Below, piece by piece: positions 10,930-60,479 of a DNA stretch of 64,000 nucleotides (position 1 is the first letter of the stretch; each line of letters starts with the position of its first letter). Both the position numbers and the translations under genes were made by a program. The notes under the pieces are model-generated. The model searched no databases. It had not been told where the DNA came from and worked only from the letters and a program-made list of their open reading frames with translations. The stretch comes from a virus. Lineage: Duplodnaviria; Heunggongvirae; Uroviricota; Caudoviricetes. The stretch lies in IMG/VR virus record IMGVR_UViG_3300045988_141797, one strand, 5' to 3'.

Positions 10930-11130
10930 AGGGAGTGTGTGATTTGTGGGAGTATTGAATAAGGATCTTTGTCGATCGAACAGCAACTATTGAGGGTGAT
11001 TTTTACACCTTAAGTGACGCAATTCACATATCCACAGAGTATTTTTATAAACCTTTTTCTCTTTTTAATCCTTTTTAGATCCTTTTTAGGCATCGCGGAG
11101 GCCAGGGGTGGCGGGGCTTGTAGAGGACCA
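10930..11130. other. putative plasmid-type replication origin region
   Basis: AT-rich, several GATC sites (gatctttgtcgatcgaac, tagatcc) and a DnaA-box-like ATATCCACA at about 11028-11036, directly upstream of the iterons. Confidence 0.45.
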
Positions 11131-11249
11131 AGGTGTAAGATTTGCCCTCAATTAAGCTATTGAGGTGTAAGATTTGCCCTCAGCAGGTGTAAGATTTGCC
11201 CTCAAAAGGTGTAGTAATTGCCCTCAAAGTGATGTAAAAATTGCCCTCA
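11131..11249 (+). repeat. five direct 20-bp iterons upstream of repA
   Basis: AGGTGTAAGATTTGCCCTCA at 11131, 11163, 11185 (exact), degenerate copies at 11207 and 11228; 22-bp spacing. Confidence 0.85.
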
Positions 11250-11273
11250 CCATTTGAAGGATCACACAGGGTT

Positions 11274-12029
11274 ATGAACAGAGCGGAATTAACGGCAAAA
11301 GCCGTCAGTCTGATTGAATCAGCGACACCAATTAGCCGTAGCTTGGCGCAGGCCAATGAGATCACAGAGGCGGCTTATCACCTGACACGCGACCAAAAGC
11401 GACTGTTGTTTATTGTGGTGGGAAGACTTCGCTATGCTTCTAAGGATGGCGTTCTTGGTTCAGGTGCCTGTGAGTTGACGGTCAACGAATATGCAGAGAT
11501 GTATAATTTGCCCTCTGCTGAAGCCAGCAAGGATATTCGTAAAGCTATCTCCGGACTTAGTGAGAAGAAAGTCACGATATATAACCCTGATGAATCAACC
11601 GAATCAGAAGACAGTTATGAGTCTTATCCCTGGATGATTAAGGAGGCTTACTCACCACGCCGGGGGACTTACATTATTCATCTGAATCCATATCTCATGC
11701 CGTTTTTTACTCTGCTTGATAAGAGGTTCACGAGGCTGAATTTTACTGAAGTGTCTCGCCTGACAAACCCTTATTCTATGCGGCTTTATGAGTCCTTATG
11801 CCAGTATAGAAAGGATGATGGGAGCGGCTTCGCTATACTTGGCGTTGAATGGATGCGGGAGCGTTATGGTCTTCCCAAAAGCTATCAACGGTACGCCGAA
11901 TTTAAGAGAAGCTTTCTGGCAAAAGCTGTAGCTGAAATCGAAAAAAACACAAAAATGAAAATAGTTTTCTCAGAGGTTACAGAAGGTGGCAGAGTTACAA
12001 AAATAAAATTCACCTATCAGCAGTCTTAA
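11274..12029 (+). CDS. repA: iteron-binding replication initiator
   Basis: Rep_3/RepE-like composition, flanked on both sides by its iterons; ORF-track start at 11241 would lie inside the iterons, so internal ATG 11274 preferred. Confidence 0.75.
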   Translation: MNRAELTAKAVSLIESATPISRSLAQANEITEAAYHLTRDQKRLLFIVVGRLRYASKDGVLGSGACELTVNEYAEMYNLPSAEASKDIRKAISGLSEKKVTIYNPDESTESEDSYESYPWMIKEAYSPRRGTYIIHLNPYLMPFFTLLDKRFTRLNFTEVSRLTNPYSMRLYESLCQYRKDDGSGFAILGVEWMRERYGLPKSYQRYAEFKRSFLAKAVAEIEKNTKMKIVFSEVTEGGRVTKIKFTYQQS

Positions 12030-12319
12030 GGGCAATTTCTACACCTCTCTGTAGGTGTAGGATTTGCCCTTAAAGATGGGAGATTGAGGGCAATTCTTAC
12101 ATCATTAGTTAGTTGGTTGGATCTTTAACGGCTAACATTATTTGTAATTTATTGATTAATAAGGAATGTGTAAAAATCACCCTCAGATGGCATCGTATGC
12201 TATAGCTATTTTTATCGCACTACTGTTGAATGTTTTATGGTTGTAACGCGTTGATTTTGTTGTGATGTGTAAAAAATGCCATCATTGACGTAAACAGCAG
12301 GTGTAGATATTGCCCTCAA
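12028..12319. repeat. second iteron set in both orientations (copy-control locus)
   Basis: iteron-like units at about 12028 (inverted), 12053, 12086 (inverted), 12166, 12262 (degenerate), 12299. Confidence 0.7.
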
Positions 12320-46122: not shown

Positions 46123-46840
46123 CTATCAAGAACTGCGCGAGGCGGCGGAACAGGCAACGCAAGATGAATGGGTAGCATATATTTTGCCGGGTCATAACGG
46201 CATTTATCCTGCGCGCACGTCTGAGGGTAGGCATTGCGGATACTTTATTGACTGGCCTGGCATTGATGGGCAAAGGAATGCTGGTGCTAATGCCCGTTAT
46301 ATCGCGGCTATCCCACCAAAAGTTGCGCTGGCACTACTGGATGAGATCAACGCATTAGAGGAAACGCGTATCAACGATGTTTGCCGTATTGCGGAACTAA
46401 CAAAACAACTGGAGTCGGCAAAATCAAAACTCAACGAGCAGCGCGAGCATTACGAGGGAGTAATCGCGGATGGAGGTAAGCGCATAGCAGAACTGGAAAA
46501 ACAATGCGCTGAATCGGAGCGAAAAGCATTAAGCAACTTTGAAGAGTGTGCTGCGATGGCTGAACGTATCGAAGAGTTGGAGCAGGCCAACACAAGACAG
46601 GACGCCAATATAAACCACCAGCAGGAGGGCGTGACTCAATCAGTCACCCGATACATATATCACTACAACGCAGTGAATGGTTCTGACTCTATGTCTGGAA
46701 TTGCGCGGTTAACTTTCATGATCAAATCACAATCTGACCTTGACGCACTTAAAAGCGCACTTAGCAAGGTTGGTGGTTTCCGTGCAAAAGCAATTACATC
46801 TCTTTCATATCTTGGGTGTGAGGAAGATAGCAAACGATGA
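46109..46840 (+). CDS. Ead/Ea22-like protein (second paralog)
   Basis: MSKINYQELREAAEQA..., ALLDEINALEE, coiled-coil KSKLNEQREHYEGVIADGGKRIAELE. Confidence 0.5.
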   Translation: MSKINYQELREAAEQATQDEWVAYILPGHNGIYPARTSEGRHCGYFIDWPGIDGQRNAGANARYIAAIPPKVALALLDEINALEETRINDVCRIAELTKQLESAKSKLNEQREHYEGVIADGGKRIAELEKQCAESERKALSNFEECAAMAERIEELEQANTRQDANINHQQEGVTQSVTRYIYHYNAVNGSDSMSGIARLTFMIKSQSDLDALKSALSKVGGFRAKAITSLSYLGCEEDSKR

Positions 46841-47370
46841 AAGAAGGATTTAAAGATAATTCAGGTGCAGCGCAAAACACTGGAGAAATCATTGAGGCAT
46901 TTAATGGGGAGGAAATGCCCACTTTATTCAGAAAAGAATATCCGCGAAAGAGTAGAGCAATAGAATTGCTGTTTATCATTCTGTTTTTCGTGTTGCTGAT
47001 ACCAATAGCCTCAATATTAGTGACTGTTCTAATGGGGAAAGTATTTGAACCGTTAGTTGAACTGTATATCGATATAGTGTGGACCCCATTCAGGAAGCTA
47101 CACAATAAAATTAACCCACATAAGGAAACAGATATGGCAACTTTGAAAAAAGAAGATCTTTTTACCAAAAAACAAATCGCCGAGGCAAAAATCCTCGATA
47201 ACAACGGAACCTACTTCATCAACGGTTCCATTCTTCCAGTTTATATCAATGAGGATGGAGACACTTACCTTATTGAAGAGTACGAAAAAGGCGAGCCGAG
47301 CGAACACCTCATTAAAGATTTGTTCGCGGATGGCGTTATTGTTGCGGTTAATCCAATCGGATACAACTGA
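46837..47370 (+). CDS. membrane protein, hypothetical
   Basis: TM segment LLFIILFFVLLIPIASILVTVLM. Confidence 0.3.
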   Translation: MKEGFKDNSGAAQNTGEIIEAFNGEEMPTLFRKEYPRKSRAIELLFIILFFVLLIPIASILVTVLMGKVFEPLVELYIDIVWTPFRKLHNKINPHKETDMATLKKEDLFTKKQIAEAKILDNNGTYFINGSILPVYINEDGDTYLIEEYEKGEPSEHLIKDLFADGVIVAVNPIGYN

Positions 47371-47380
47371 GGCATAATTT

Positions 47381-47956
47381 ATGACCACTTTAACCGACAA
47401 AGAACTGATTAAAGAAATCAAAGAGCGCATAGGCAGTCTGGACGTGCGAGACAATATTGAGCGCCGTGCTTATGAAATTGCGCTGGCATCGCTGGAAGCA
47501 GAGCCTGTTGGTGAGTTTTATGAATACAAACCGGGTGACTGGTATCAGCGTTCGGTCGGGGATAAAGCACCAAAGTGGGTGCCGTTATATGCCACTCCGC
47601 CAGTTCCGGAATTGCAGGCTGATGTCGCACAAGCAATTGAAAATCTCAAGCAGAAGTTAGTGGAATGCAATCGCTATAACTACTGCGCAGATGCAGTTAA
47701 AGGCGTAGAGGATGCCAGCCGCGTCTTGGCACTCCAAAATCAAAATATGTCAGCACCGGTAACGCCGGAGGCCATTGAAAACGCAATTGAATATATCCGC
47801 AGTATCGCTTTTCACATCGATGAAGACGATTACCACGGCAAGCATATTGCGTATTTCATGCGACAAGCACTGGTCTGGCTGGAAGGGCATTCATGCAGCG
47901 ACGACAGACAGGGTAAAGCCGAGAATCAACCAGTACGCGGCAACCAGGCTGCCTAA
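47381..47956 (+). CDS. hypothetical protein
   Basis: 191-aa ORF. Confidence 0.3.
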   Translation: MTTLTDKELIKEIKERIGSLDVRDNIERRAYEIALASLEAEPVGEFYEYKPGDWYQRSVGDKAPKWVPLYATPPVPELQADVAQAIENLKQKLVECNRYNYCADAVKGVEDASRVLALQNQNMSAPVTPEAIENAIEYIRSIAFHIDEDDYHGKHIAYFMRQALVWLEGHSCSDDRQGKAENQPVRGNQAA

Positions 47957-48010
47957 TCCAATCGCGGTAATGAGTGGACCGGCAATCCTGATATTGATAA
48001 CGCAATCATC

Positions 48011-48463
48011 ATGCACGACCGCATAGATACGCTGGAAAATTGCGATGATGACCGTATTGAGGGTGTTAAGGCTGTTTTGCGCAGACTGGCTGGCAACTAT
48101 CCGGATATTCCGGATAGTTCGGTGCCAGCACCAGGAAAGGGCGTCACCGGTGAACGTATCCGAATTAAGCCGCATGTTTATCGCGAACTGGTTAACCGTC
48201 TCCACGATACAGCGATCAAGTGTGCTGGCACCCAGCAATTACGAGAAAGAATTAGCCGTGTTTTGGGCGACGTTATTACGCCAGATCATCATAAACAAGC
48301 CGAGAAAAGTGACCTGGAAAGGTGTCACCTTGAGGCGGCATTAAACATTAAGCCGGGGCATACGCTTGGCATTATCGATGCTCTGTTGGTTCATAAGATG
48401 GCCAGGGCTTTATTGCCGCTGGTGGCTGAAAAGCATGAGGCGGACCATGCCAACGAAAGCTGA
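48011..48463 (+). CDS. hypothetical protein sharing a module with the DUF4406 protein
   Basis: PHVYRELVNRLHDTAIKCAGTQQLRERI versus PHIYRELVNALRDIAAVYHGTEQLRERL. Confidence 0.35.
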   Translation: MHDRIDTLENCDDDRIEGVKAVLRRLAGNYPDIPDSSVPAPGKGVTGERIRIKPHVYRELVNRLHDTAIKCAGTQQLRERISRVLGDVITPDHHKQAEKSDLERCHLEAALNIKPGHTLGIIDALLVHKMARALLPLVAEKHEADHANES

Positions 48464-48715
48464 ATTACAGGTGCGCGTAGATGAGCTTGAAAAAGAGAAC
48501 GCGAGCCTCAAAAAAATGCTGTCGCGGGCGGAAAGGGAATTATCAGGCAAATTATTGCCAGAAGAACTGCCACCAGCAGATATACCTGATCGCGTGTCCT
48601 GATGGATGAAGTATTTCCGTGCACCGTGGGAGGCGTTTTGGTGCTACGACCATCGCAGATGGTGTGATGAACTTGATAGCAGTTTTCCCTACTTTGCGGA
48701 AGGGAACACCTGCCC

Positions 48716-49066
48716 TCAATGCAGGGGATAGCATTTGACGAAATCGATCACCCTATCCTGAGCTTCAGAAAGAAGGTCTTTTTCTCGCGCCAGGACGTCA
48801 GGATATTGACGTTCTGGCCTTATCAGATGCCGGAGCTTCCCATTAAGCAGAATGGCCTCAGAAAACACTTTTACGCTGTGCTTTATCCCCTCTGTTTCAC
48901 TTTTCAGCGTCAAAATAAAGCGCAATTGCTTATTAGCCTGATTCGGATTCAATACACGAATTTGCAGTTCGTCTATGCTGTTTCGCAATGGGATTGATGC
49001 CACCACACTGGTGCAGTCCCTGATTGTCTGAATTGAACGGCTAACATTGAGAACGTTATTGTGCAT
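48716..49066 (-). CDS. hypothetical protein, lone minus-strand gene in plus-strand array
   Basis: 116-aa ORF. Confidence 0.3.
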   Translation of the reverse strand: MHNNVLNVSRSIQTIRDCTSVVASIPLRNSIDELQIRVLNPNQANKQLRFILTLKSETEGIKHSVKVFSEAILLNGKLRHLIRPERQYPDVLAREKDLLSEAQDRVIDFVKCYPLH

Positions 49067-49098
49067 GTGCCTGATCCACTAACTCCTGGAGGTTTCTT

Positions 49099-49350
49099 GT
49101 GTCAGATCGAAATATAGCAGCTAAAAGCCAGGAAGAGCGAGACAAGGTGAACGTAGACCTTGCCGCCAGCGGCGTTGCTTACAAAGAACGGCTGAATATA
49201 CCTGTGATTGCAGAGCAGGTGGCCCGTGAGCAACCGGAAAACCTGCGCGCCTATTTCATGGAACGGCTACGGCACTACCGGCAGTTAAGCCTCCAGTTGC
49301 CAAAAGGGAGCGATCCGGTGTATCAGAACGAGGATGCACCAAAAAAATAA
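49099..49350 (+). CDS. hypothetical small protein
   Basis: 83-aa ORF. Confidence 0.3.
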
Positions 49351-49473
49351 CGGCAAGCTGGGGGAGAAATGTGATTAGCCCCCAGCGTGGCGCGCCTACA
49401 AACCCCGCTTTCACAAACTATGCCTTTTCAATGTATACTGTATGAATAAACAGTATTATTGAGGTAAAACGCT

Positions 49474-49863
49474 ATGGGCTTCCCTTCTCCTGCGGCGGAT
49501 TATGTTGAAAGCCGAATTTCTCTTGATCAGCAACTAATCAGGCATCCATCAGCCACCTACTTCATGCGGGCGGCTGACAGCCACTACCGCGAAGGCATAT
49601 TGCAAGGGGCGTTGCTGGTGGTTGATTCCTCGCTTACTCCGGTTGATGGTTCGCTGCTTGTCTGCGCTATGGAGGGTGAATATCGCATAAAGAGATACAG
49701 GAAGTATCCGCGCCAGCACCTGGAGGATTTAAGCACCGGGAAGAAAGAGGCGTTACCAGTGGATGACGATGGATACACGGGCAGTAATGCTGTTTTTGGT
49801 GTGATCACCCACATTATCAATGACGCCAGGGACGGTGAATTTGATGATAGTCCTGCTATATGA
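49474..49863 (+). CDS. humD: UmuD'-like S24 peptidase-fold protein (HumD-like)
   Basis: MGFPSPAADY...ATYFMRA...GALLVVD...GEYRIKRY, UmuD-type core without the N-terminal cleavable arm. Confidence 0.7.
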   Translation: MGFPSPAADYVESRISLDQQLIRHPSATYFMRAADSHYREGILQGALLVVDSSLTPVDGSLLVCAMEGEYRIKRYRKYPRQHLEDLSTGKKEALPVDDDGYTGSNAVFGVITHIINDARDGEFDDSPAI

Positions 49864-49997
49864 TTTGTTTTCAGAGAAACCATAGAGAGGCATGACTGGA
49901 CCTATATCGCCCTGGCCATTTAAATGATTCCTCCCATTAGACGCGGTTACTCACTTGAAGATAAGATGAGGTTATAATTCTCTTTTTAGGTACGCGA

Positions 49998-50420
49998 ATG
50001 AGTTCGTCTGCTTTTGTCACTGTTGTCACTGGAGTAAGCGTTTTTGTCCTAGGTCGACTCATCATCAAGGGGGTTGAGTCTTACATTTCATTCAAGGAAC
50101 AGTTGGGGGAAATATCGCATCTGTTATTGTCTAACCAAGCAAAGCTATCGAATCCCCGCTCTGACTTAAAACAAGAAATCATCCATGATTTGAAAGATGC
50201 GGCAGCACAGTTACGGGTGAAGTACGAACTATTACCTTTCTATATCAAAATGTTACCCATCGGTTTTCGCCTTGTTCCATCAGAAACTGAAATTCGTAAA
50301 GCGGCGCAAGAATTGAATCTGATAGCCTCGATACATGATGGTAAAACCGGAGAGCTGCCATATGAGCACATAGCCAAGATTGGATTACTGCTCAGAATTC
50401 CAACCACTTATTCTGCTTAA
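49998..50420 (+). CDS. membrane-anchored hypothetical protein
   Basis: N-terminal TM helix AFVTVVTGVSVFVLGRLII. Confidence 0.3.
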   Translation: MSSSAFVTVVTGVSVFVLGRLIIKGVESYISFKEQLGEISHLLLSNQAKLSNPRSDLKQEIIHDLKDAAAQLRVKYELLPFYIKMLPIGFRLVPSETEIRKAAQELNLIASIHDGKTGELPYEHIAKIGLLLRIPTTYSA

Positions 50421-50528
50421 TCCCAGCAATTGCAAGACTGCATCTCGAGGATTTAAGGCACCAAGAAGTGGTATTCAGCATCATTAAAACCTATAATTGC
50501 GTACACATAACGAGTACACGAGGTGTTT

Positions 50529-51165: not shown

Positions 51166-52272
51166 TCACTCAATGATTTTTTCTGCTGTCAGCCAGCTAA
51201 TTTCTTGCCTGTCTTTCGGCGGTTTTAGCATGTGGGCGTATTCAGCGACATTCTCCCACGGAATTGTTTTTGCCCACTCAACGATAGCATTGTGATCTGC
51301 AGTGAAGAGTGGAATGGTGTGCGATTTCAACCACTCTAATGTTGTAACGCCATGTTTTTTGGCGTGGTGCTGTGCATGATGCCGGGCTATCACTAGTAAT
51401 GGCATTGTCCATTCACTACCATCAGGCATCGTAAAGCGCATTGTTTTCGGCATATCTGATTCAAGAACAGCCTCCCGAATACCAGGGAACTCACCAAGAA
51501 CCATACGACGGTAGTAATCGCCGTTTTTACCACCATGCGATTTTGCGAACTCATCGAAATAATCTTGAGTGAGAAGAGGTGATTCTTCTGCGTTCAGCTT
51601 AATAGCCGTATAAATACCACATGGATTTTCTTCAGTTTTTGCTCGATCATGATGGGAATCGTAAAAGTGTCCATGTTCCTCCTCTGGAGGAGCAGACGTC
51701 AAAAGTATACGTGAGTCGCCACTAACTAAAGATGCTCTTAACATCCCGAATAGCCGATAGCTTACCAGAGCCGCGTCCATAACAATGATCAGAAGATGTT
51801 CACCATAATACCCGGCTACATCTTCCTCATAATTTAGGCGATATGGTTTAATTTCGCAGCCCCAAGATTTTTGGTAACGATGATTGAGGCCATTTTGAAC
51901 GAGTTGAAAATACTCTCCCAGCAATGGCGCTTTTGTATTAGCTTTCTCCCAATACATGTTCATGAGTGAAAGAGTTACCATTGCATTACGCTCAAAGTCT
52001 GGAGCGACTATGACCGTTTTAGACTCAGGCATCAGGATCGTATAAAGGATACAAATGATAGCCAGAGCAGACTTATGCCCTATCCCATGCGGTGTGGTAA
52101 CGCTGACTGCTGAACCTTTTTGTTGAATCGCCTCAACAATTAGCTTTTGCTGGTGGGTTAACTTAACACCCATCAACTCTTCTGCTGCTAATGCCCAGTC
52201 ATGGCTATATTTGCTTACCAGCTCTCTCCACTCTGGTAATTCGGTGATGTTTTTAGGCGTCAGCATCAGCAT
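51166..52272 (-). CDS. degenerate paralog of the large terminase ATPase domain, no nuclease domain
   Basis: colinear with the N-terminal 300 aa of the 57607-59115 terminase; Walker A interrupted (TPHGIGHKSA vs SGHGTGKSS); Walker B acid lost (LLIIVMDAA vs LLLILDEAS); unrelated C-terminal 100 aa. Confidence 0.6.
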   Translation of the reverse strand: MLMLTPKNITELPEWRELVSKYSHDWALAAEELMGVKLTHQQKLIVEAIQQKGSAVSVTTPHGIGHKSALAIICILYTILMPESKTVIVAPDFERNAMVTLSLMNMYWEKANTKAPLLGEYFQLVQNGLNHRYQKSWGCEIKPYRLNYEEDVAGYYGEHLLIIVMDAALVSYRLFGMLRASLVSGDSRILLTSAPPEEEHGHFYDSHHDRAKTEENPCGIYTAIKLNAEESPLLTQDYFDEFAKSHGGKNGDYYRRMVLGEFPGIREAVLESDMPKTMRFTMPDGSEWTMPLLVIARHHAQHHAKKHGVTTLEWLKSHTIPLFTADHNAIVEWAKTIPWENVAEYAHMLKPPKDRQEISWLTAEKIIE

Positions 52273-53065: not shown

Positions 53066-53716
53066 TCACTCCACAACAAACCAGTCACAGGCCAGTAAAT
53101 CATCCACAGACGGCAACCAAACGCTGTCCATATTTTGTGCATCTTTCAATACAAAATGGTCACCATAAGGAACGTGAATGCCGTGTAAATTGACGCTTCC
53201 AGCGAGAACTAACCAGCAGAATTGCTTTTCGCCTTTCCACTCGCGTCGGGCAACTTTCTTGCCTTCCTTCAACCACATTAGCGCATCAGAGAAGTCGGCT
53301 GCTTCAAGGTCGATTTCTTCTTGCTGGGTGGTGATGCCACCAGCAGAAATAGTTACGCTCCCAGTAAGATTAATCATCACGCCGTTGTCATCCGTAATGA
53401 TGACCGTGGTTCCATTTTTGGAGGCGTCGTTAACCAGGCCATAGCATTCCTCAAATGGTTTCTCCGGGGCATAGAACAGATAACCGTTTTCATAAACGAT
53501 CAGATACCCGCCAGTTTTTGGTCGGTGTTTTTGTAAAAACATTGCGTCAACACAAACTGTTGCCCCTTTTGGTTCAACGAGTTCGATGCAGCCCCAAAGT
53601 GGGGCATCAGTTACTCCGAAAATAACAACATTTTTGATTTTCGATGCACTAACGTTTTTGTGAGCTTTGTATTTGGGAAGGAACTTAAAAAGCTCTTTCG
53701 TGGGCATGTTATTCAT
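53066..53716 (-). CDS. two-domain protein with C-terminal DUF2829 (Tad2-like) domain
   Basis: C-terminal 75 aa DFSDALMWLKEGKKVARREWKG...VWLPSVDDLLACDWFVVE matches the DUF2829 pattern. Confidence 0.5.
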   Translation of the reverse strand: MNNMPTKELFKFLPKYKAHKNVSASKIKNVVIFGVTDAPLWGCIELVEPKGATVCVDAMFLQKHRPKTGGYLIVYENGYLFYAPEKPFEECYGLVNDASKNGTTVIITDDNGVMINLTGSVTISAGGITTQQEEIDLEAADFSDALMWLKEGKKVARREWKGEKQFCWLVLAGSVNLHGIHVPYGDHFVLKDAQNMDSVWLPSVDDLLACDWFVVE

Positions 53717-53730
53717 AGCCTTTCCTCTAC

Positions 53731-54225
53731 TTAAAACTTTGCGTACTGAAGCGGTGTACGCTTGATTTCAATGCGGTCTTCCGATGTGCTACCAAAGCCA
53801 CCAGCACCTCGCTCTGTTTCATCGAGTTCATCAACTTCTACCAGCGATACCGGTTCAACACGCTCAAAAATGCCTTGCATGACCGCCATTCCTGGCTTGA
53901 GGCAAACGCCTTCACCACCGGGATCTGTAATCAGTTTTGCTTTGATTTCACCGCGATAATCGGAGTCGATAATTCCTACGCAGTTAGCCAGGCGCGTATG
54001 CTTTTTGCAGCCCAATCCGGAACGAGGATAAAGTTTCAGACACCAGCCAGGAGGGATCGCCATAGCGAGGCCGGTATGCACCCACCAGCTTGAGGAAATA
54101 GCGCCGTTGCTATTGATACCTGGCGTTATTTCAACAGCAATAAAATCCATCGCCGCCGATCCGGCGGTGGCGTAAACGGGGAGTCTTGCCGCCGGATGAA
54201 GGCGTTTCACTTTCACGTTAATCAT
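53731..54225 (-). CDS. dut: dUTP diphosphatase
   Basis: dUTPase motifs AGSAAMDF, RSGLG, GIIDSDYRGE, ERGAGGFGSTS. Confidence 0.85.
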   Translation of the reverse strand: MINVKVKRLHPAARLPVYATAGSAAMDFIAVEITPGINSNGAISSSWWVHTGLAMAIPPGWCLKLYPRSGLGCKKHTRLANCVGIIDSDYRGEIKAKLITDPGGEGVCLKPGMAVMQGIFERVEPVSLVEVDELDETERGAGGFGSTSEDRIEIKRTPLQYAKF

Positions 54226-54710
54226 TGCTTTTTAGCTCTCCGGGTAAATGTATAAATCCGGCGTTTGATATGCGGAGCGGTCGGAACGGAGACGCAGGTA
54301 TTCTCGATAACACCTTGTTCCTCCAGCGATCGCACAGCACGCAAGAACTGTGATGCATCACCACCGCCAGACAGCCAGAATTTGCGGGCATAGACGCTGC
54401 CATTACGGATAATTTCTGCGATCACCCGCGCTTGCGTCTGGCTTTCTCGATAGCCAAAGAGTTCTCTTGCCTCTCCTTGTGGGATAGCCAACTGATAGCC
54501 TTTCCCGCTACGGTGACGGACAAAACCGTGAGCAATGAGGTTCTTCAGCTCATTTCGGGTGCGGATACACCCGTACTCAGGGAACTGTGTGTTGATATCA
54601 CCAGGCTTATGCCATTCATCAGGACTATCAGCCAGGAGGGACAGAAGTTTCCCTGACAGCTCAGGATTAGTGGTTGGATAGCAGTTCAGGGATGGGTAGT
54701 AAGTTTTCAT
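54222..54710 (-). CDS. hypothetical protein
   Basis: 162-aa ORF, overlap-coupled. Confidence 0.3.
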   Translation of the reverse strand: MKTYYPSLNCYPTTNPELSGKLLSLLADSPDEWHKPGDINTQFPEYGCIRTRNELKNLIAHGFVRHRSGKGYQLAIPQGEARELFGYRESQTQARVIAEIIRNGSVYARKFWLSGGGDASQFLRAVRSLEEQGVIENTCVSVPTAPHIKRRIYTFTRRAKKQ

Positions 54711-55051
54711 TTGCGCCCCCTTGCCGGATAGCGCCCGGCATTTGCATCAGGAGCAATGAAGCCGCTGGTGGGGCGAGTGAAAACATGGTTAATTTTCTCG
54801 GTCATAGCGCGATAATTTTCCTGATAGTGGGCCAGGAGTTTTTCAGCAGCAATGACGGTTACTTTCCGGACGTAGCGTTCAGCTTCCTCCAGATTTCGCC
54901 AGTTTTTTTCGAGGGTAAACACGGGAACGGCATCAAGTCCGGTCATAACACCGAACACCACGACCGCCTGGTCGCGCTTAACGCCCGCAGTGAAGGTTAT
55001 GGTGTAACCGTCAACAGTGAAGCGTTTTGATTCCGTAATACGATTGTGCAA
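54707..55051 (-). CDS. hypothetical protein, first gene of operator-controlled operon
   Basis: 114-aa ORF. Confidence 0.3.
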   Translation of the reverse strand: MHNRITESKRFTVDGYTITFTAGVKRDQAVVVFGVMTGLDAVPVFTLEKNWRNLEEAERYVRKVTVIAAEKLLAHYQENYRAMTEKINHVFTRPTSGFIAPDANAGRYPARGRK

Positions 55052-55105
55052 AGTACCCTCCGCAATAGGCGAGGGTACTTTACATTAAAATGCACTGTCT
55101 AAAAA

Positions 55106-55130
55106 GATTGTTAGAAAATTAATTTATGAA
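55106..55130. promoter_or_regulatory. operator site
   Basis: GATTGTTAGAAAATTAATTTATGAA upstream of the 55051 operon, overlapping the Cre-like gene 3' end. Confidence 0.5.
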
Positions 55131-56152
55131 TCCATCAGGCGACTATTTGCACCAACGGATGCCCCGCTACGGCGCAAATATCGCATAAGTGTTTCGGGCT
55201 TTTTCCATGTGCCTTCCTGCATGATCTCGACCATTGACACCTGTTTCTCAGCCATATCAATTGCCGCACCAACACGCGCACTATGGCCTGTCCACGTCCG
55301 GTATCTTCCCTTGTTCGGCGTGGCATCTCGTTTGTTCAGCAACCCCCAGGCATCGCTGAATATTTTCTCCATTGCAGGTGCAGTAAGGGGCGTTGTCGTG
55401 ATTCTGGCCTTATTACTGCGGTGTATTGGCGGGAATAGCACCGCGTCCGGATGTTCTCGAAGTCCGGACACCTCCAGCCAGTCGTTCAGTACGGCGGTAG
55501 TGTAACGAGAAAGCACCTTATCAAGTCCGGCGGCGGTCGTGATGGTCTTCGTGTGTGAAATATGCAGCGTTACAGTGTCACCTGTTTGGTCCAGATCTCC
55601 GACGCGGATGCGCGAGATTTCTGACATACGCATCAGGGTATTGTATGCCACGAAGAGAAACGCCCGATTGCGCAGGTCCACCAGCCGCTCGGAACGGGAC
55701 AGCAACACGTCGAGCAATTTCAGATCATCCCACCGCAACGGTATAGCCTGGCCTGTTCGCTCGCCTTTTTCCGTTGCCGCTTCGCGCCGGATGCGCCGCA
55801 TGGCCAGAGACACACTTTTATCGTCCGACAGCGGCGGGAGGCCACATTGCGAAAGCAGCATGTTAAGCATGGCATAGTGCTTATCAATGGTGGTCGAAGC
55901 CAGATCGGCCTCATGCAACTGGAGAAGATACTCGCGGGCCATTTCCGGCGTAATCGGGAACCAGGGGCGCTGGCGCGAGTTACACCACCGCGCCCAGGAA
56001 TGAAACACCAGACGGAGATCACGAAGTGTATTTGGGGCATAAGCTCCCTGGTCGTTCATGAACTGCATAAAGTTTTTTGCAGCTTCCTGGTATTCGGTGC
56101 CAATATCGCGCAGAAAACCACCAGAACCGCCGGAGATAACTAGTTCACCCAT
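55124..56152 (-). CDS. Cre-like tyrosine site-specific recombinase
   Basis: colinear with P1 Cre from memory (WTGHSARVGAA, RIRVGDL, MRRIRRE, conserved C-terminal Tyr) but clearly diverged. Confidence 0.8.
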   Translation of the reverse strand: MGELVISGGSGGFLRDIGTEYQEAAKNFMQFMNDQGAYAPNTLRDLRLVFHSWARWCNSRQRPWFPITPEMAREYLLQLHEADLASTTIDKHYAMLNMLLSQCGLPPLSDDKSVSLAMRRIRREAATEKGERTGQAIPLRWDDLKLLDVLLSRSERLVDLRNRAFLFVAYNTLMRMSEISRIRVGDLDQTGDTVTLHISHTKTITTAAGLDKVLSRYTTAVLNDWLEVSGLREHPDAVLFPPIHRSNKARITTTPLTAPAMEKIFSDAWGLLNKRDATPNKGRYRTWTGHSARVGAAIDMAEKQVSMVEIMQEGTWKKPETLMRYLRRSGASVGANSRLMDS

Positions 56153-56303
56153 GAAACTATTAAACCTCTATATACAGATAACGCTACGTGAAAAATAGAA
56201 AACTGACAGGGTAGTTATAAGTTAATTTTCAAAATTCAAGCCTTTGATTCGAGGCATGATTTTTCATCCTTGTCAATACTGCCTGTTTACTGGAGATTAT
56301 AGC

Positions 56304-56337
56304 CTAACTTTAAATAATGCCAATTATTTAAAGTTAG
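56304..56337. other. lox-like recombination site (13-bp inverted arms, 8-bp asymmetric spacer)
   Basis: CTAACTTTAAATA-ATGCCAAT-TATTTAAAGTTAG, perfect arms, about 150 bp upstream of the Cre-like start; arms share TAACTT...ATA with loxP. Confidence 0.65.
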
Positions 56338-56416
56338 AAATCGGGACTTTTTCCCAAAAAAACACCGACCAGATCACTTCGCAAATCCGTCAGCCATGCG
56401 GTAGCCGCTCCTGGTT

Positions 56417-56521
56417 ACATTTTCTAATAGGAACAATCAAAAAAAAGCGGTTTTATCCTTTACTCACCTTGTTATTCGGCATAAATTTGTCACAGGACTT
56501 TTATGTTAGAAAACTAAATCG
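56417..56521. promoter_or_regulatory. pair of inverted operator half-sites upstream of the 56532 ORF
   Basis: ACATTTTCTAATAG at 56417-56430 and TGTTAGAAAACT at about 56505-56516. Confidence 0.45.
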
Positions 56522-57606: not shown

Positions 57607-59115
57607 TTAAATGTCAATATCAGGAATATCCACTTCTGCCAACACCTGATCGCGGAATGTTGCGAGTTCTGCGCCAATGTCTTCATTAGCAGGCACGTAA
57701 TCCACCAGCATAGTGAAGCAGTAGGTATCCCATCTGTCCGGTGACTTGATGTTTAACTTCTGCCGCATGTGCTCCTTGCGCATCATCGCTACCTTCCCTT
57801 CTTCGTTAAGCATATACGGGATTTTTGATGCCTGATCTGCGGTTTTGGGGTCACTATCGATACGCATACGCCCGGATTTAATGGCATCCCCTGCCATAAT
57901 ATTGGCGTAAGCACGCTGATTGACAAAGCGTTCTCTGTCTCTCAGCGCAAACATAGGCTTACCCCAACGGATGCGAACGGGATTAGCACCACGGCGGACA
58001 AGCTGCGCACACGTATCTGAACCAAAGCCATCAGCATCCACAGCAATGGTGATGTTCGGGTATTTATCAGGAGTGCATTCGTTATAGATAAAGTCGGCAA
58101 AAGCCAACGGGTCCATAGTGCCTGGCATCTCCAGTATCTTAAAGTTTACAACGCGTCGTTTCTCACGATAACCGGATACTTTGCATATATTGAGCACCGA
58201 TTTGTCGCGACCATTACCGACGTCAGCGGTCGCTACCCAGCCCCAATCTTTCTCCAGCAACACTTTACGCCGTGCGGCGCGGTCGCACTCATCACGACCA
58301 AGCAAATACCCGTTAATTGCACGCGGGAACTGGCCCAGCACCTTAACCATGTACTCCAGCGAATCCCTGCCGCCGTACTCCAGCAATTTCTCACGAATAA
58401 AGCTCGGTTCAACGAATGGTGATTCTTCAGAGTTAAGGACTATTGCCGTCCAGACACCTTCCGGATTGCCTTCTGCCTTTGCCCTTGAATGGTGAGATTC
58501 ATAAAAGTAACCGCTTGGACGCGTAGGCTGGGAAAGCATGAGCATACGGTTATCTTTCTGCGTTAACGCCCCCGTCATGACGTTAATCGCCTTATCGGAT
58601 ATGCCCGATGCTTCATCAAGGATTAGCAGTAAATGCTCAGCGTGCTCCCCCGCCAGTGCCTCTTCGTTACCGAGTCGATAACCTTTACAGAGCACTTCCC
58701 ATATCCCTTTACGGGAACGCTCATAAAACATGGTGTCAGACAGGACAAAATAGGTCTGTAACCAGCCGTGACGCTTAACAGCATTCGCCCAAAACTGTTT
58801 CACGTATTTGAATACGCCTGTTTTTACCTGGCCTATTTTGTTCGCAACAATAATGACGCGGGCGTCGGGGAACAGGATCATGAAAATTAGTAGCAACATC
58901 GCGGTAAGGGACGACTTACCCGTTCCGTGTCCGGACGTAACGGTCGTCCTGCTCCCCGTCTCCTGCACTGACTGAATGATCTGCTGCTGCTGGTGGGAGG
59001 GGAACATCCCAAAAATATCGACAACCGCCTGGGTAAAGTTGTATCGATACCTGATAACCATATCGCGCCAACGTGGATCACTGGTGACGCACTTAATCTT
59101 ACGACCACCAGCCAT
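57607..59115 (-). CDS. terminase large subunit (PacB-like)
   Basis: Walker A SGHGTGKSS, Walker B LLLILDEAS, C-terminal nuclease-type acidic residues; 502 aa. Confidence 0.8.
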   Translation of the reverse strand: MAGGRKIKCVTSDPRWRDMVIRYRYNFTQAVVDIFGMFPSHQQQQIIQSVQETGSRTTVTSGHGTGKSSLTAMLLLIFMILFPDARVIIVANKIGQVKTGVFKYVKQFWANAVKRHGWLQTYFVLSDTMFYERSRKGIWEVLCKGYRLGNEEALAGEHAEHLLLILDEASGISDKAINVMTGALTQKDNRMLMLSQPTRPSGYFYESHHSRAKAEGNPEGVWTAIVLNSEESPFVEPSFIREKLLEYGGRDSLEYMVKVLGQFPRAINGYLLGRDECDRAARRKVLLEKDWGWVATADVGNGRDKSVLNICKVSGYREKRRVVNFKILEMPGTMDPLAFADFIYNECTPDKYPNITIAVDADGFGSDTCAQLVRRGANPVRIRWGKPMFALRDRERFVNQRAYANIMAGDAIKSGRMRIDSDPKTADQASKIPYMLNEEGKVAMMRKEHMRQKLNIKSPDRWDTYCFTMLVDYVPANEDIGAELATFRDQVLAEVDIPDIDI

Positions 59116-60479
59116 TAGTCATCCTCCGGCTGGTCTATCGCAATCTCGTCATCTACAGCATCAAAACCGGTATCCCCCGCGTCATAATCACCGTAGATAT
59201 CAGCCGTGGCGGAAGGGTCTATATTCAGGTCTTCATCATTGGCCTCAAATTCACCGGCTTTACGTTCTCCGTTCCGGTCGTAATCCCCCATCCCAAGCCT
59301 ATCAACGATTTTCGCTACTTCAGCCCGGCGTTGTGCAAGCCATTGTGGGAGTCCAGCTTGTTGCTCGGCAAACTGTTTCGCCTCTTTATCCAGTTGCTCA
59401 TCATCAACATCGTTAACGTCAGAAACCGGAGGCTCCAGAAGTGAGATCGCTTTTGCCGCTCGTGCCGCCAGGATAGCCGGGACACTGACGCCCTGCCGCT
59501 CGATATATTCAGCAACACCTATATCATCCAGCTCCTCGCGCTCACGCATACGTATAGCGGCGGCGATAACCCTGGCGGCGCGTGCGTCAGCGCCAATGCG
59601 ATACTCAATCTCCTTGCCACGCTGCTCGGCTTGTAGGCGGGCAATCGCCAGTTTTTCTCTGGCCTCAGCCTCCCTGAATGCCTGCTGACGCGCGCCCTGC
59701 GCAAGTTTTTCATCCCCCTGGCGTAGCTTCTGCTCGTTCTGATAGATGGCTGCCAGCCTGGTGATAAAGTCATTCATGTAGTAGGCCGCATCGCTGATCA
59801 GTCCGAGAAGACGCTGCCCTGGGTGCATCCCCTCTGGCTGTGTATCACCGAGGGCGTCAATCTCTTCCTGTAGTCGCTCCGCTTCCTGGTCAACGATAGC
59901 CTGATACTGAATTGCTCGTTCCTGCGCCATCTGTATCGCAAGTCGTAAATGTTCAGTCGCGCCGTTCTTCATCATCTCACGGGCGACGTTGGTGGCAGGC
60001 AAAGTGGTGCTTTGAGCTGATGAATCAGGGATCATTTGCAATGATCCCTTGTTTCGTTGGGCTTTATCGCTGCTTTTAGGGATCATTTCTCCCATTTCAT
60101 CACAAAATGATCCCTTCACATCCTTGTGTATCTTGTTGTTATTACTTGGCTTTTCTTTGTGATCCGCATTTTGTTTTTGCGGCATGGCGCGGAACCGTCC
60201 ACCAGCCAACGATTTGTCAGTTTTTGTAAATTCTGTGCTTTTATTAGCCTTTTTTTGCTCTTTTTTTGAGCCGGTGGCGCTGCTTTTTGCGCGCTGTTTT
60301 GTACTTTTCCCGGTAGCCTTAGCTTTCGCCTTAACCTCATTTTTTTTCATATTGAGATGCTTTCTGGCGGTGTTAAAGCTGAGGTCATGCTGCTCGCAAT
60401 ATTCTTTTATGGTGATCCCGGTTGCTTCTCTTAACTCCAGGAACTTAGCTCGATGCGCTTCCCAGTTAATTAACGTCAT
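59115..60479 (-). CDS. terminase small subunit (PacA-like), contains pac-like site
   Basis: N-terminal HTH, overlap-coupled to large terminase; GATC heptamer cluster within N-terminal coding region. Confidence 0.55.
   Translation of the reverse strand: MTLINWEAHRAKFLELREATGITIKEYCEQHDLSFNTARKHLNMKKNEVKAKAKATGKSTKQRAKSSATGSKKEQKKANKSTEFTKTDKSLAGGRFRAMPQKQNADHKEKPSNNNKIHKDVKGSFCDEMGEMIPKSSDKAQRNKGSLQMIPDSSAQSTTLPATNVAREMMKNGATEHLRLAIQMAQERAIQYQAIVDQEAERLQEEIDALGDTQPEGMHPGQRLLGLISDAAYYMNDFITRLAAIYQNEQKLRQGDEKLAQGARQQAFREAEAREKLAIARLQAEQRGKEIEYRIGADARAARVIAAAIRMREREELDDIGVAEYIERQGVSVPAILAARAAKAISLLEPPVSDVNDVDDEQLDKEAKQFAEQQAGLPQWLAQRRAEVAKIVDRLGMGDYDRNGERKAGEFEANDEDLNIDPSATADIYGDYDAGDTGFDAVDDEIAIDQPEDD
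60028..60167. repeat. pac-like cluster of GATC-containing heptamers
   Basis: GGGATCA 60028, TGATCCC 60042, GGGATCA 60079, TGATCCC 60108, TGATCCG 60161; five Dam sites in about 140 bp. Confidence 0.55.

Follow-up and report, generated by a model that had tools for sequence, protein, structure and literature searches.

A close allele of the Dre recombinase and an intact rox site in a D6-like phage-plasmid

The stretch of DNA analysed here, 64,000 nucleotides of the IMG/VR virus record IMGVR_UViG_3300045988_141797 and referred to below as the window, carries a recombinase gene and an adjacent palindrome that almost certainly form the Dre/rox site-specific recombination module of a D6-like phage-plasmid. 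This assignment follows from a target site equal to rox in 32 of 32 positions, a recombinase 94% identical to Dre, the conservation of catalytic as well as specificity-linked residues, the synteny with D6, the single copy of the site and a dN/dS of 0.043 for the gene. Dre/rox of phage D6 was reportedly described by Sauer and McDermott in 2004. The system is routinely used beside Cre/loxP, and has found wide use in mouse genetics. Table 1 collects the features of the locus, together with the rox cores found at related loci.

Table 1. Features of the dre/rox region of the window and natural rox cores at related loci (positions are those of the window unless a locus is named).
Feature	Position	Strand	Basis or remark
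dut	53731-54225	-	dUTPase Pfam match; size and order as AY753669 dut
orf3-like	54222-54710	-	size and order as AY753669 orf3
orf2-like	54707-55051	-	size and order as AY753669 orf2
dre, Dre-type (Cre-like) tyrosine site-specific recombinase, 342 aa	55124-56152	-	open reading frame, ATG start, homology, domains
sigma-70 promoter-like site toward dre	56296-56323	-	11/12 consensus match
rox, 32-bp Dre target	56305-56336		matches published wild-type rox and the AY753669 misc_recomb 'rox'
rox left arm, TAACTTTAAATAAT	56305-56318		
rox core GCCA, asymmetric	56319-56322		same core in D6 and in 20/23 IMG/VR loci
rox right arm, ATTATTTAAAGTTA	56323-56336		
c1-type prophage repressor, 345 aa	56532-57569	+	80% identical over its full length to D6 C1 AAV84948; D6-like position
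pacB, terminase large subunit	57607-59115	-	size and position as D6 pacB; weak Terminase_6N match
pacA, terminase small subunit	59115-60479	-	size and position as D6 pacA; annotation in the 99.6%-identical plasmid is 'DNA pacase A subunit'
rox core CCCC	L027 12405-12436		one 94% Dre allele
rox core GCTA	L020 3706-3737		69% homologue
rox core ACTA	L004 1905-1936; L005 1905-1936; L006 1886-1917		each of three loci sampled from the ~79% tier

Concerning the enzyme, the window protein is identical, residue for residue, to RefSeq WP_021551777.1, a coding sequence of the E. coli plasmid NZ_CP085065.1 (locus L002). It aligns without gaps to D6 Dre (AAV84949), with 322 of the 342 residues identical (94%), and shows 41% identity to P1 Cre. 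Two Pfam families, PF00589 (Phage_integrase, E = 2.6e-17) and PF02899 (N-terminal SAM-like, E = 1.3e-05), score above cut-off, and Cre chains from PDB crystal structures match residues 22-341 with E = 4e-72. All seven catalytic residues are present, namely R175/E178/K202/H290/R293/W316/Y325, which pair in the alignment with R173/E176/K201/H289/R292/W315/Y324 of Cre, and they agree with the catalytic residues listed for Dre in PMC4777119. Having the catalytic and the SAM-like domains as well as the R-E-K-H-R-W-Y active site, the protein is a tyrosine recombinase of the Cre type.

At the nucleotide level, a megablast search of positions 55000-56500 against phage records returned a sole match, Escherichia phage D6, at ~86% identity, and beneath it the D6 record is annotated with 'dre: tyrosine recombinase' and with 'region of crossover (rox) site for Dre recombinase'. 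Over the gene itself the nucleotide identity to D6 dre is 87%, with a dS of 0.69 and the dN/dS given above, values which imply ample time for divergence and yet a tightly constrained protein. The dre gene is under strong purifying selection.

The palindrome, CTAACTTTAAATAATGCCAATTATTTAAAGTTAG, occupies 34 bp at 56304-56337 and starts 151 bp upstream of the dre ATG (56152). It is the sole match to its sequence in the window at ≤3 mismatches, with 0 expected from 100 shuffles. A repeat finder describes it as a perfect inverted repeat of 15+15 bp around the asymmetric 4-bp core GCCA. Its inner 32 bp, 56305-56336, read TAACTTTAAATAAT-GCCA-ATTATTTAAAGTTA, which is rox at 32 of 32 positions; PMC4777119 prints wild-type rox as 5'-TAACTTTAAATAATGCCAATTATTTAAAGTTA-3', the same 32 bp as in the window, and parses it as 14-4-14. 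The pair just outside rox is C...G in the window versus C...T in D6, hence the palindrome is one pair longer here. The site is fully kept between the window and D6, while only 27/40 and 19/40 positions are identical in the 40-bp flanks, and a 16-bp indel relative to D6 lies on the c1 side. A scan for loxP-like sequences found none within 10 mismatches in the window, and rox shares 21 of 34 positions with loxP; given this and the protein identity of 41%, the locus is not P1 Cre/loxP proper. The palindrome was also considered as a terminator and rejected, since a terminator scan gave no flag there.

An initial annotation, made from the raw sequence, had described most of this arrangement. It proposed a 342-aa Cre-type recombinase diverged from P1 Cre, which agrees with the identity to Cre and with the retention of the seven catalytic residues, and a perfect 34-bp site about 150 bp upstream of the start, which is indeed found; its span of 55124-56337 correctly covers both gene and site. 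The proposed parsing into 13-bp arms and an 8-bp spacer is literally true, though not maximal, the arms extending to 15+15 bp around a 4-bp core. It had also called for confirmation that the complete element has no second copy of the site, and a single rox at ≤8 mismatches is found in the complete plasmid NZ_CP085065.1, which holds one further arm-like sequence, with 2 mismatches and no partner arm.

What the same annotation went on to claim, a Cre/lox-type pair of new, undescribed specificity, is very improbable. The protein is, to be sure, just 41% identical to P1 Cre, the site shares only the 21/34 positions with loxP, and 20 residues differ from D6 Dre. Against this stand the full match of the site to rox, the specificity-linked residues shared with Dre, the presence of the exact protein in RefSeq and in IMG/VR contigs, and the fact that Dre/rox has been published and in use since 2004. 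The equivalents of Cre K43/R259/G263 contribute to the discrimination of loxP from rox/pox (Karimova et al., PMC4957104), and they are R44/P259/K263 in both the window protein and Dre. Of the 20 residues that differ from D6 Dre, 15 lie in the N-terminal domain (7 within residues 1-30) and 5 in the C-terminal domain. Only one, Dre H102Q (aligned with Cre R101), hits the list of Cre DNA-contact residues used for this check, which was drawn up from general background. D6 Dre recombines rox with rox and is inactive on loxP (PMC4957104 and further literature), and no cross-reactivity between Cre/loxP and Dre/rox has been seen in E. coli. Moreover, Panto, just 52% identical to Dre, recombines rox (PMC4957104), so an allele at 94% should do so too. 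The window protein is thus expected to share the enzyme specificity of Dre, and we infer from the sequence comparison that this allele would behave like that of D6. The suggestion of a Cre homologue paired with a lox-like site of its own holds, in that Dre/rox is heterospecific to Cre/loxP and serves as an orthogonal tool in the literature, and the roles it named, plasmid cyclisation and dimer resolution, are plausible; the suggestion of novelty is refuted on sequence grounds, as the Dre/rox system, the exact protein and the type of host element are all already known. The raw sequence alone sufficed to spot a true pair of recombinase and target, the novelty claim being the sole failure.

The gene neighbourhood corroborates the Dre/rox assignment. 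The order dut-orf3-orf2-dre-rox-c1-pacB-pacA is that of the D6 immC region, as judged from the order and sizes of the open reading frames in AY753669 and MF356679. Downstream of dre, the dut/orf3-like/orf2-like block (53731-55051) is syntenic with D6 immC; on the other side, c1 is placed divergently from dre, across rox, and the pac genes follow at ~1.3-4 kb from rox, a layout found in both P1 and D6. A P1-type pac cluster of TGATCA/G hexamers was not found in pacA, where a single hexamer occurs. C1 is 80% identical to its D6 counterpart versus 94% for the adjacent Dre, and the rox-c1 intergenic region combines low identity with the 16-bp indel; from these sequences, the recombination module would seem to diverge more slowly than the immunity determinants.

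Two further open reading frames lie beyond this block. At 51166-52272 (minus strand), a 368-aa protein is a paralogue of the N-terminal ATPase half of PacB (35% identity over 258 aa, E = 2e-50), without the nuclease half, and its Walker A and B motifs look degenerate by eye (PHGIGHKS, and MDAA for LDEA). Pfam gives no match for it, and it is not found at the corresponding position in NZ_CP085065; it may act as a decoy or as an accessory in packaging. At 53066-53716 (minus strand), just past dut in the dre-orf2-orf3-dut string, a protein of 216 aa bears, at its C-terminus, a Tad2-like domain (Thoeris anti-defence 2, PF11195, E = 2.8e-18), which makes its gene a candidate anti-defence gene.

The source element is a D6-like phage-plasmid of E. 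coli. Most of the window aligns at ~96-99.6% to NZ_CP085065.1, a circular plasmid of 94,191 bp on which phage genes for head, tail, portal and terminase stand beside RepB, ParM and several toxin-antitoxin pairs. Two stretches of the window, 46340-50492 and 10945-12265, have no alignment of >400 bp to this plasmid, which, at ~19.5-26.3 kb, opposite the first of these gaps, holds a type I restriction-modification system, hsdRSM. The unaligned stretches and hsdRSM indicate that accessory or defence cargo differs between near-identical phage-plasmids.

The dre/rox locus was matched in 193 PLSDB plasmids and in 155 of 5,426 complete E. coli genomes, where 153 of the 158 places are on plasmids and 5 are chromosomal, and window-type flanks were found in five IMG/VR contigs; Dre and rox had been noted earlier in two E. 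coli strains (Karimova et al., PMC4957104). The matches form three nucleotide tiers, at ≥97% (the window subgroup), 83-87% (the D6 subgroup) and ~79%. Among the matches listed, those of the window and D6 tiers are all on plasmids of 80-120 kb, mostly ~87-97 kb, while the ~79% tier, whose three sampled members have the rox core ACTA, occurs also in many unrelated plasmid backbones, on plasmids of 49 to 218 kb, and accounts for all three chromosomal places among the matches listed (NZ_CP010143, NZ_CP115312 and NZ_CP098841; H129, H139 and H140). The occurrence of the ACTA tier on E. coli chromosomes and on plasmids of such varied size indicates that this module travels outside intact phage-plasmids.

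These places bear on another reading, which takes the enzyme for an integrase and has the element insert at a pseudo-rox site in the host chromosome. The 5 chromosomal places out of 158 would fit it; those listed, however, all belong to the ~79% tier with its different core, the listed window-tier and D6-tier matches are without exception on plasmids, the closest relative has the plasmid replication and partition genes RepB and ParM, and the target is a simple 32-bp site without an attP-like arm structure. An integrase of this kind is extremely improbable. Concerning the chromosomal copies of the ACTA tier, IS-mediated capture and Dre-mediated integration are candidate routes.

Natural variation of the site, as seen in a scan for both rox arms with any 4-bp core, is confined to the core: with Dre homologues spanning 69-100% identity to the window protein, the arms never change. 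Besides GCCA, the cores found are CCCC, GCTA and ACTA (Table 1). The recombinases of two ACTA loci (L004 and L005) are 88-90% identical both to the window protein and to Dre, and the ACTA class is common, the ~79% tier comprising 81 PLSDB plasmids, including pK91 of S. Typhi and IncY and IncF plasmids. In the literature searched, an ACTA-core rox variant was not found. Strand exchange between two sites requires homology of their cores. Karimova et al. (PMC4957104) observed no co-integration of rox with pox and considered spacer incompatibility the likely cause. Taken together, the need for core homology and this absence of co-integration imply that the GCCA, ACTA, GCTA and CCCC cores are probably natural heterotypic classes of rox. 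The useful yield is hence a catalogue of natural Dre alleles, at 69-100% identity with constant 14-bp arms, and of natural 4-bp cores, which could be mined for heterotypic rox sites or for better-behaved Dre variants.

A scan of GTDB genomes for rox arms with any core gave one match, in OZ007016.1, an uncultured Clostridia metagenome-assembled genome (L014, 6381-6412): a perfect, AT-rich 14-4-14 palindrome with rox-identical arms and the core TAAT. It was rejected as a relative of rox, given that a Dre-like gene is absent from the 8-kb locus. The palindrome is probably due to chance or of a terminator-like kind, and could in principle act as a pseudo-rox site.

The rox site also overlaps a promoter-like sequence directed toward dre, the sole sigma-70 match of ≥11/12 on either strand of the window. 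Its -35 hexamer, TTGGCA (56323-56318), overlaps the junction of the rox core and right arm, and after a 16-nt spacer its -10 hexamer, TATAAT (56301-56296), lies 3 bp beyond the rox arm. The -10 hexamer is invariant in 32 of the 32 sites tabulated from the window and related loci, including that of the 69% homologue, with its otherwise unrelated flanks, while the -35 hexamer varies along with the core. A putative dre promoter would therefore overlap the rox core, which suggests that rox-bound Dre could regulate its own transcription.

One might then take the palindrome as mainly transcriptional, an operator or a promoter-occluding site for, e.g., C1, with the recombinase acting elsewhere. The position of the -35 hexamer on the core, the invariant -10 hexamer just outside the arm and the location of the site within the divergent dre-c1 intergenic region all speak for it. 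Yet the identical 32 bp are the minimal Dre substrate used in experiments in the literature, and the arms stay constant even though the -35 hexamer shifts with the core, which fits recombinase binding better than a promoter constraint; furthermore, neither a second copy nor a half-site of an operator array is present in NZ_CP085065.1. This transcriptional reading is highly improbable, and a regulatory role at rox is compatible with the recombination role rather than an alternative to it.

Within the Dre/rox assignment, these observations can be joined in a tentative and rather doubtful picture, in which the core would double as the -35 element and bound Dre would throttle its own synthesis, the core variants would be non-recombining classes that prevent the fusion of co-resident D6/P1-like plasmids, and the 94% allele might be more or less active or toxic than laboratory Dre. 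If this were true, the core variants would be ready-made, natural heterotypic rox sites.

The mechanism proposed for the module follows that of Cre, the structural paradigm of the family. One Dre monomer would bind to each 14-bp rox arm, and two sites occupied in this way would synapse into a tetramer. Y325 would then cleave and swap one pair of strands, and the resulting Holliday junction would isomerise before the second pair is exchanged. The asymmetric core would set the orientation of rox and would have to be homologous in both partners. Each genome having one rox, a plasmid-prophage dimer holds two, and by analogy with P1 Cre/lox their recombination would yield monomers and permit stable partition. 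Similarly, as in P1, linear virion DNA that enters the cell with rox in both of its terminally redundant ends would be closed to a circle by recombination between them, in which case rox would, hypothetically, lie within the terminal redundancy of the first headfuls. Dimer resolution and cyclisation are hence the roles that the analogy with P1 suggests for Dre/rox.

Among known systems, Dre/rox of D6 (AY753669, MF356679) is the nearest. The two have in common the complete rox site, a collinear recombinase of 342 aa at 94% identity, the catalytic and specificity residues, the gene neighbourhood and the 151-bp spacing between site and start. They differ by the 20 substitutions, by a nucleotide identity of 87% over the gene, by the divergent flanks of rox with the 16-bp indel on the c1 side, by the palindrome, which is 15-4-15 in the window versus 14-4-14 in D6, and by a C1 only 80% identical.

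P1 Cre/loxP belongs to the same family, with the same fold and catalytic residues, and likewise has a single inverted-repeat site by the gene, between it and c1-pacB-pacA; dimer resolution and cyclisation are presumed roles of both systems. In contrast to P1, the protein is at 41% identity, the site shares 21 of 34 positions and is built as 14-4-14 here versus 13-8-13, the window is without a cra open reading frame between site and gene, and the promoter arrangement differs; according to the literature, Cre/loxP and Dre/rox do not cross-react.

Finally, Panto/pox of Pantoea sp. aB (Karimova et al. 2016, PMC4957104) is also a Cre-type system, with site arms that are nearly those of rox, and Panto and Dre each act on both rox and pox (PMC4957104). 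It is set apart by its pox spacer, which differs, and by the 52% identity of Panto to Dre, whereas the window protein is a close Dre allele.
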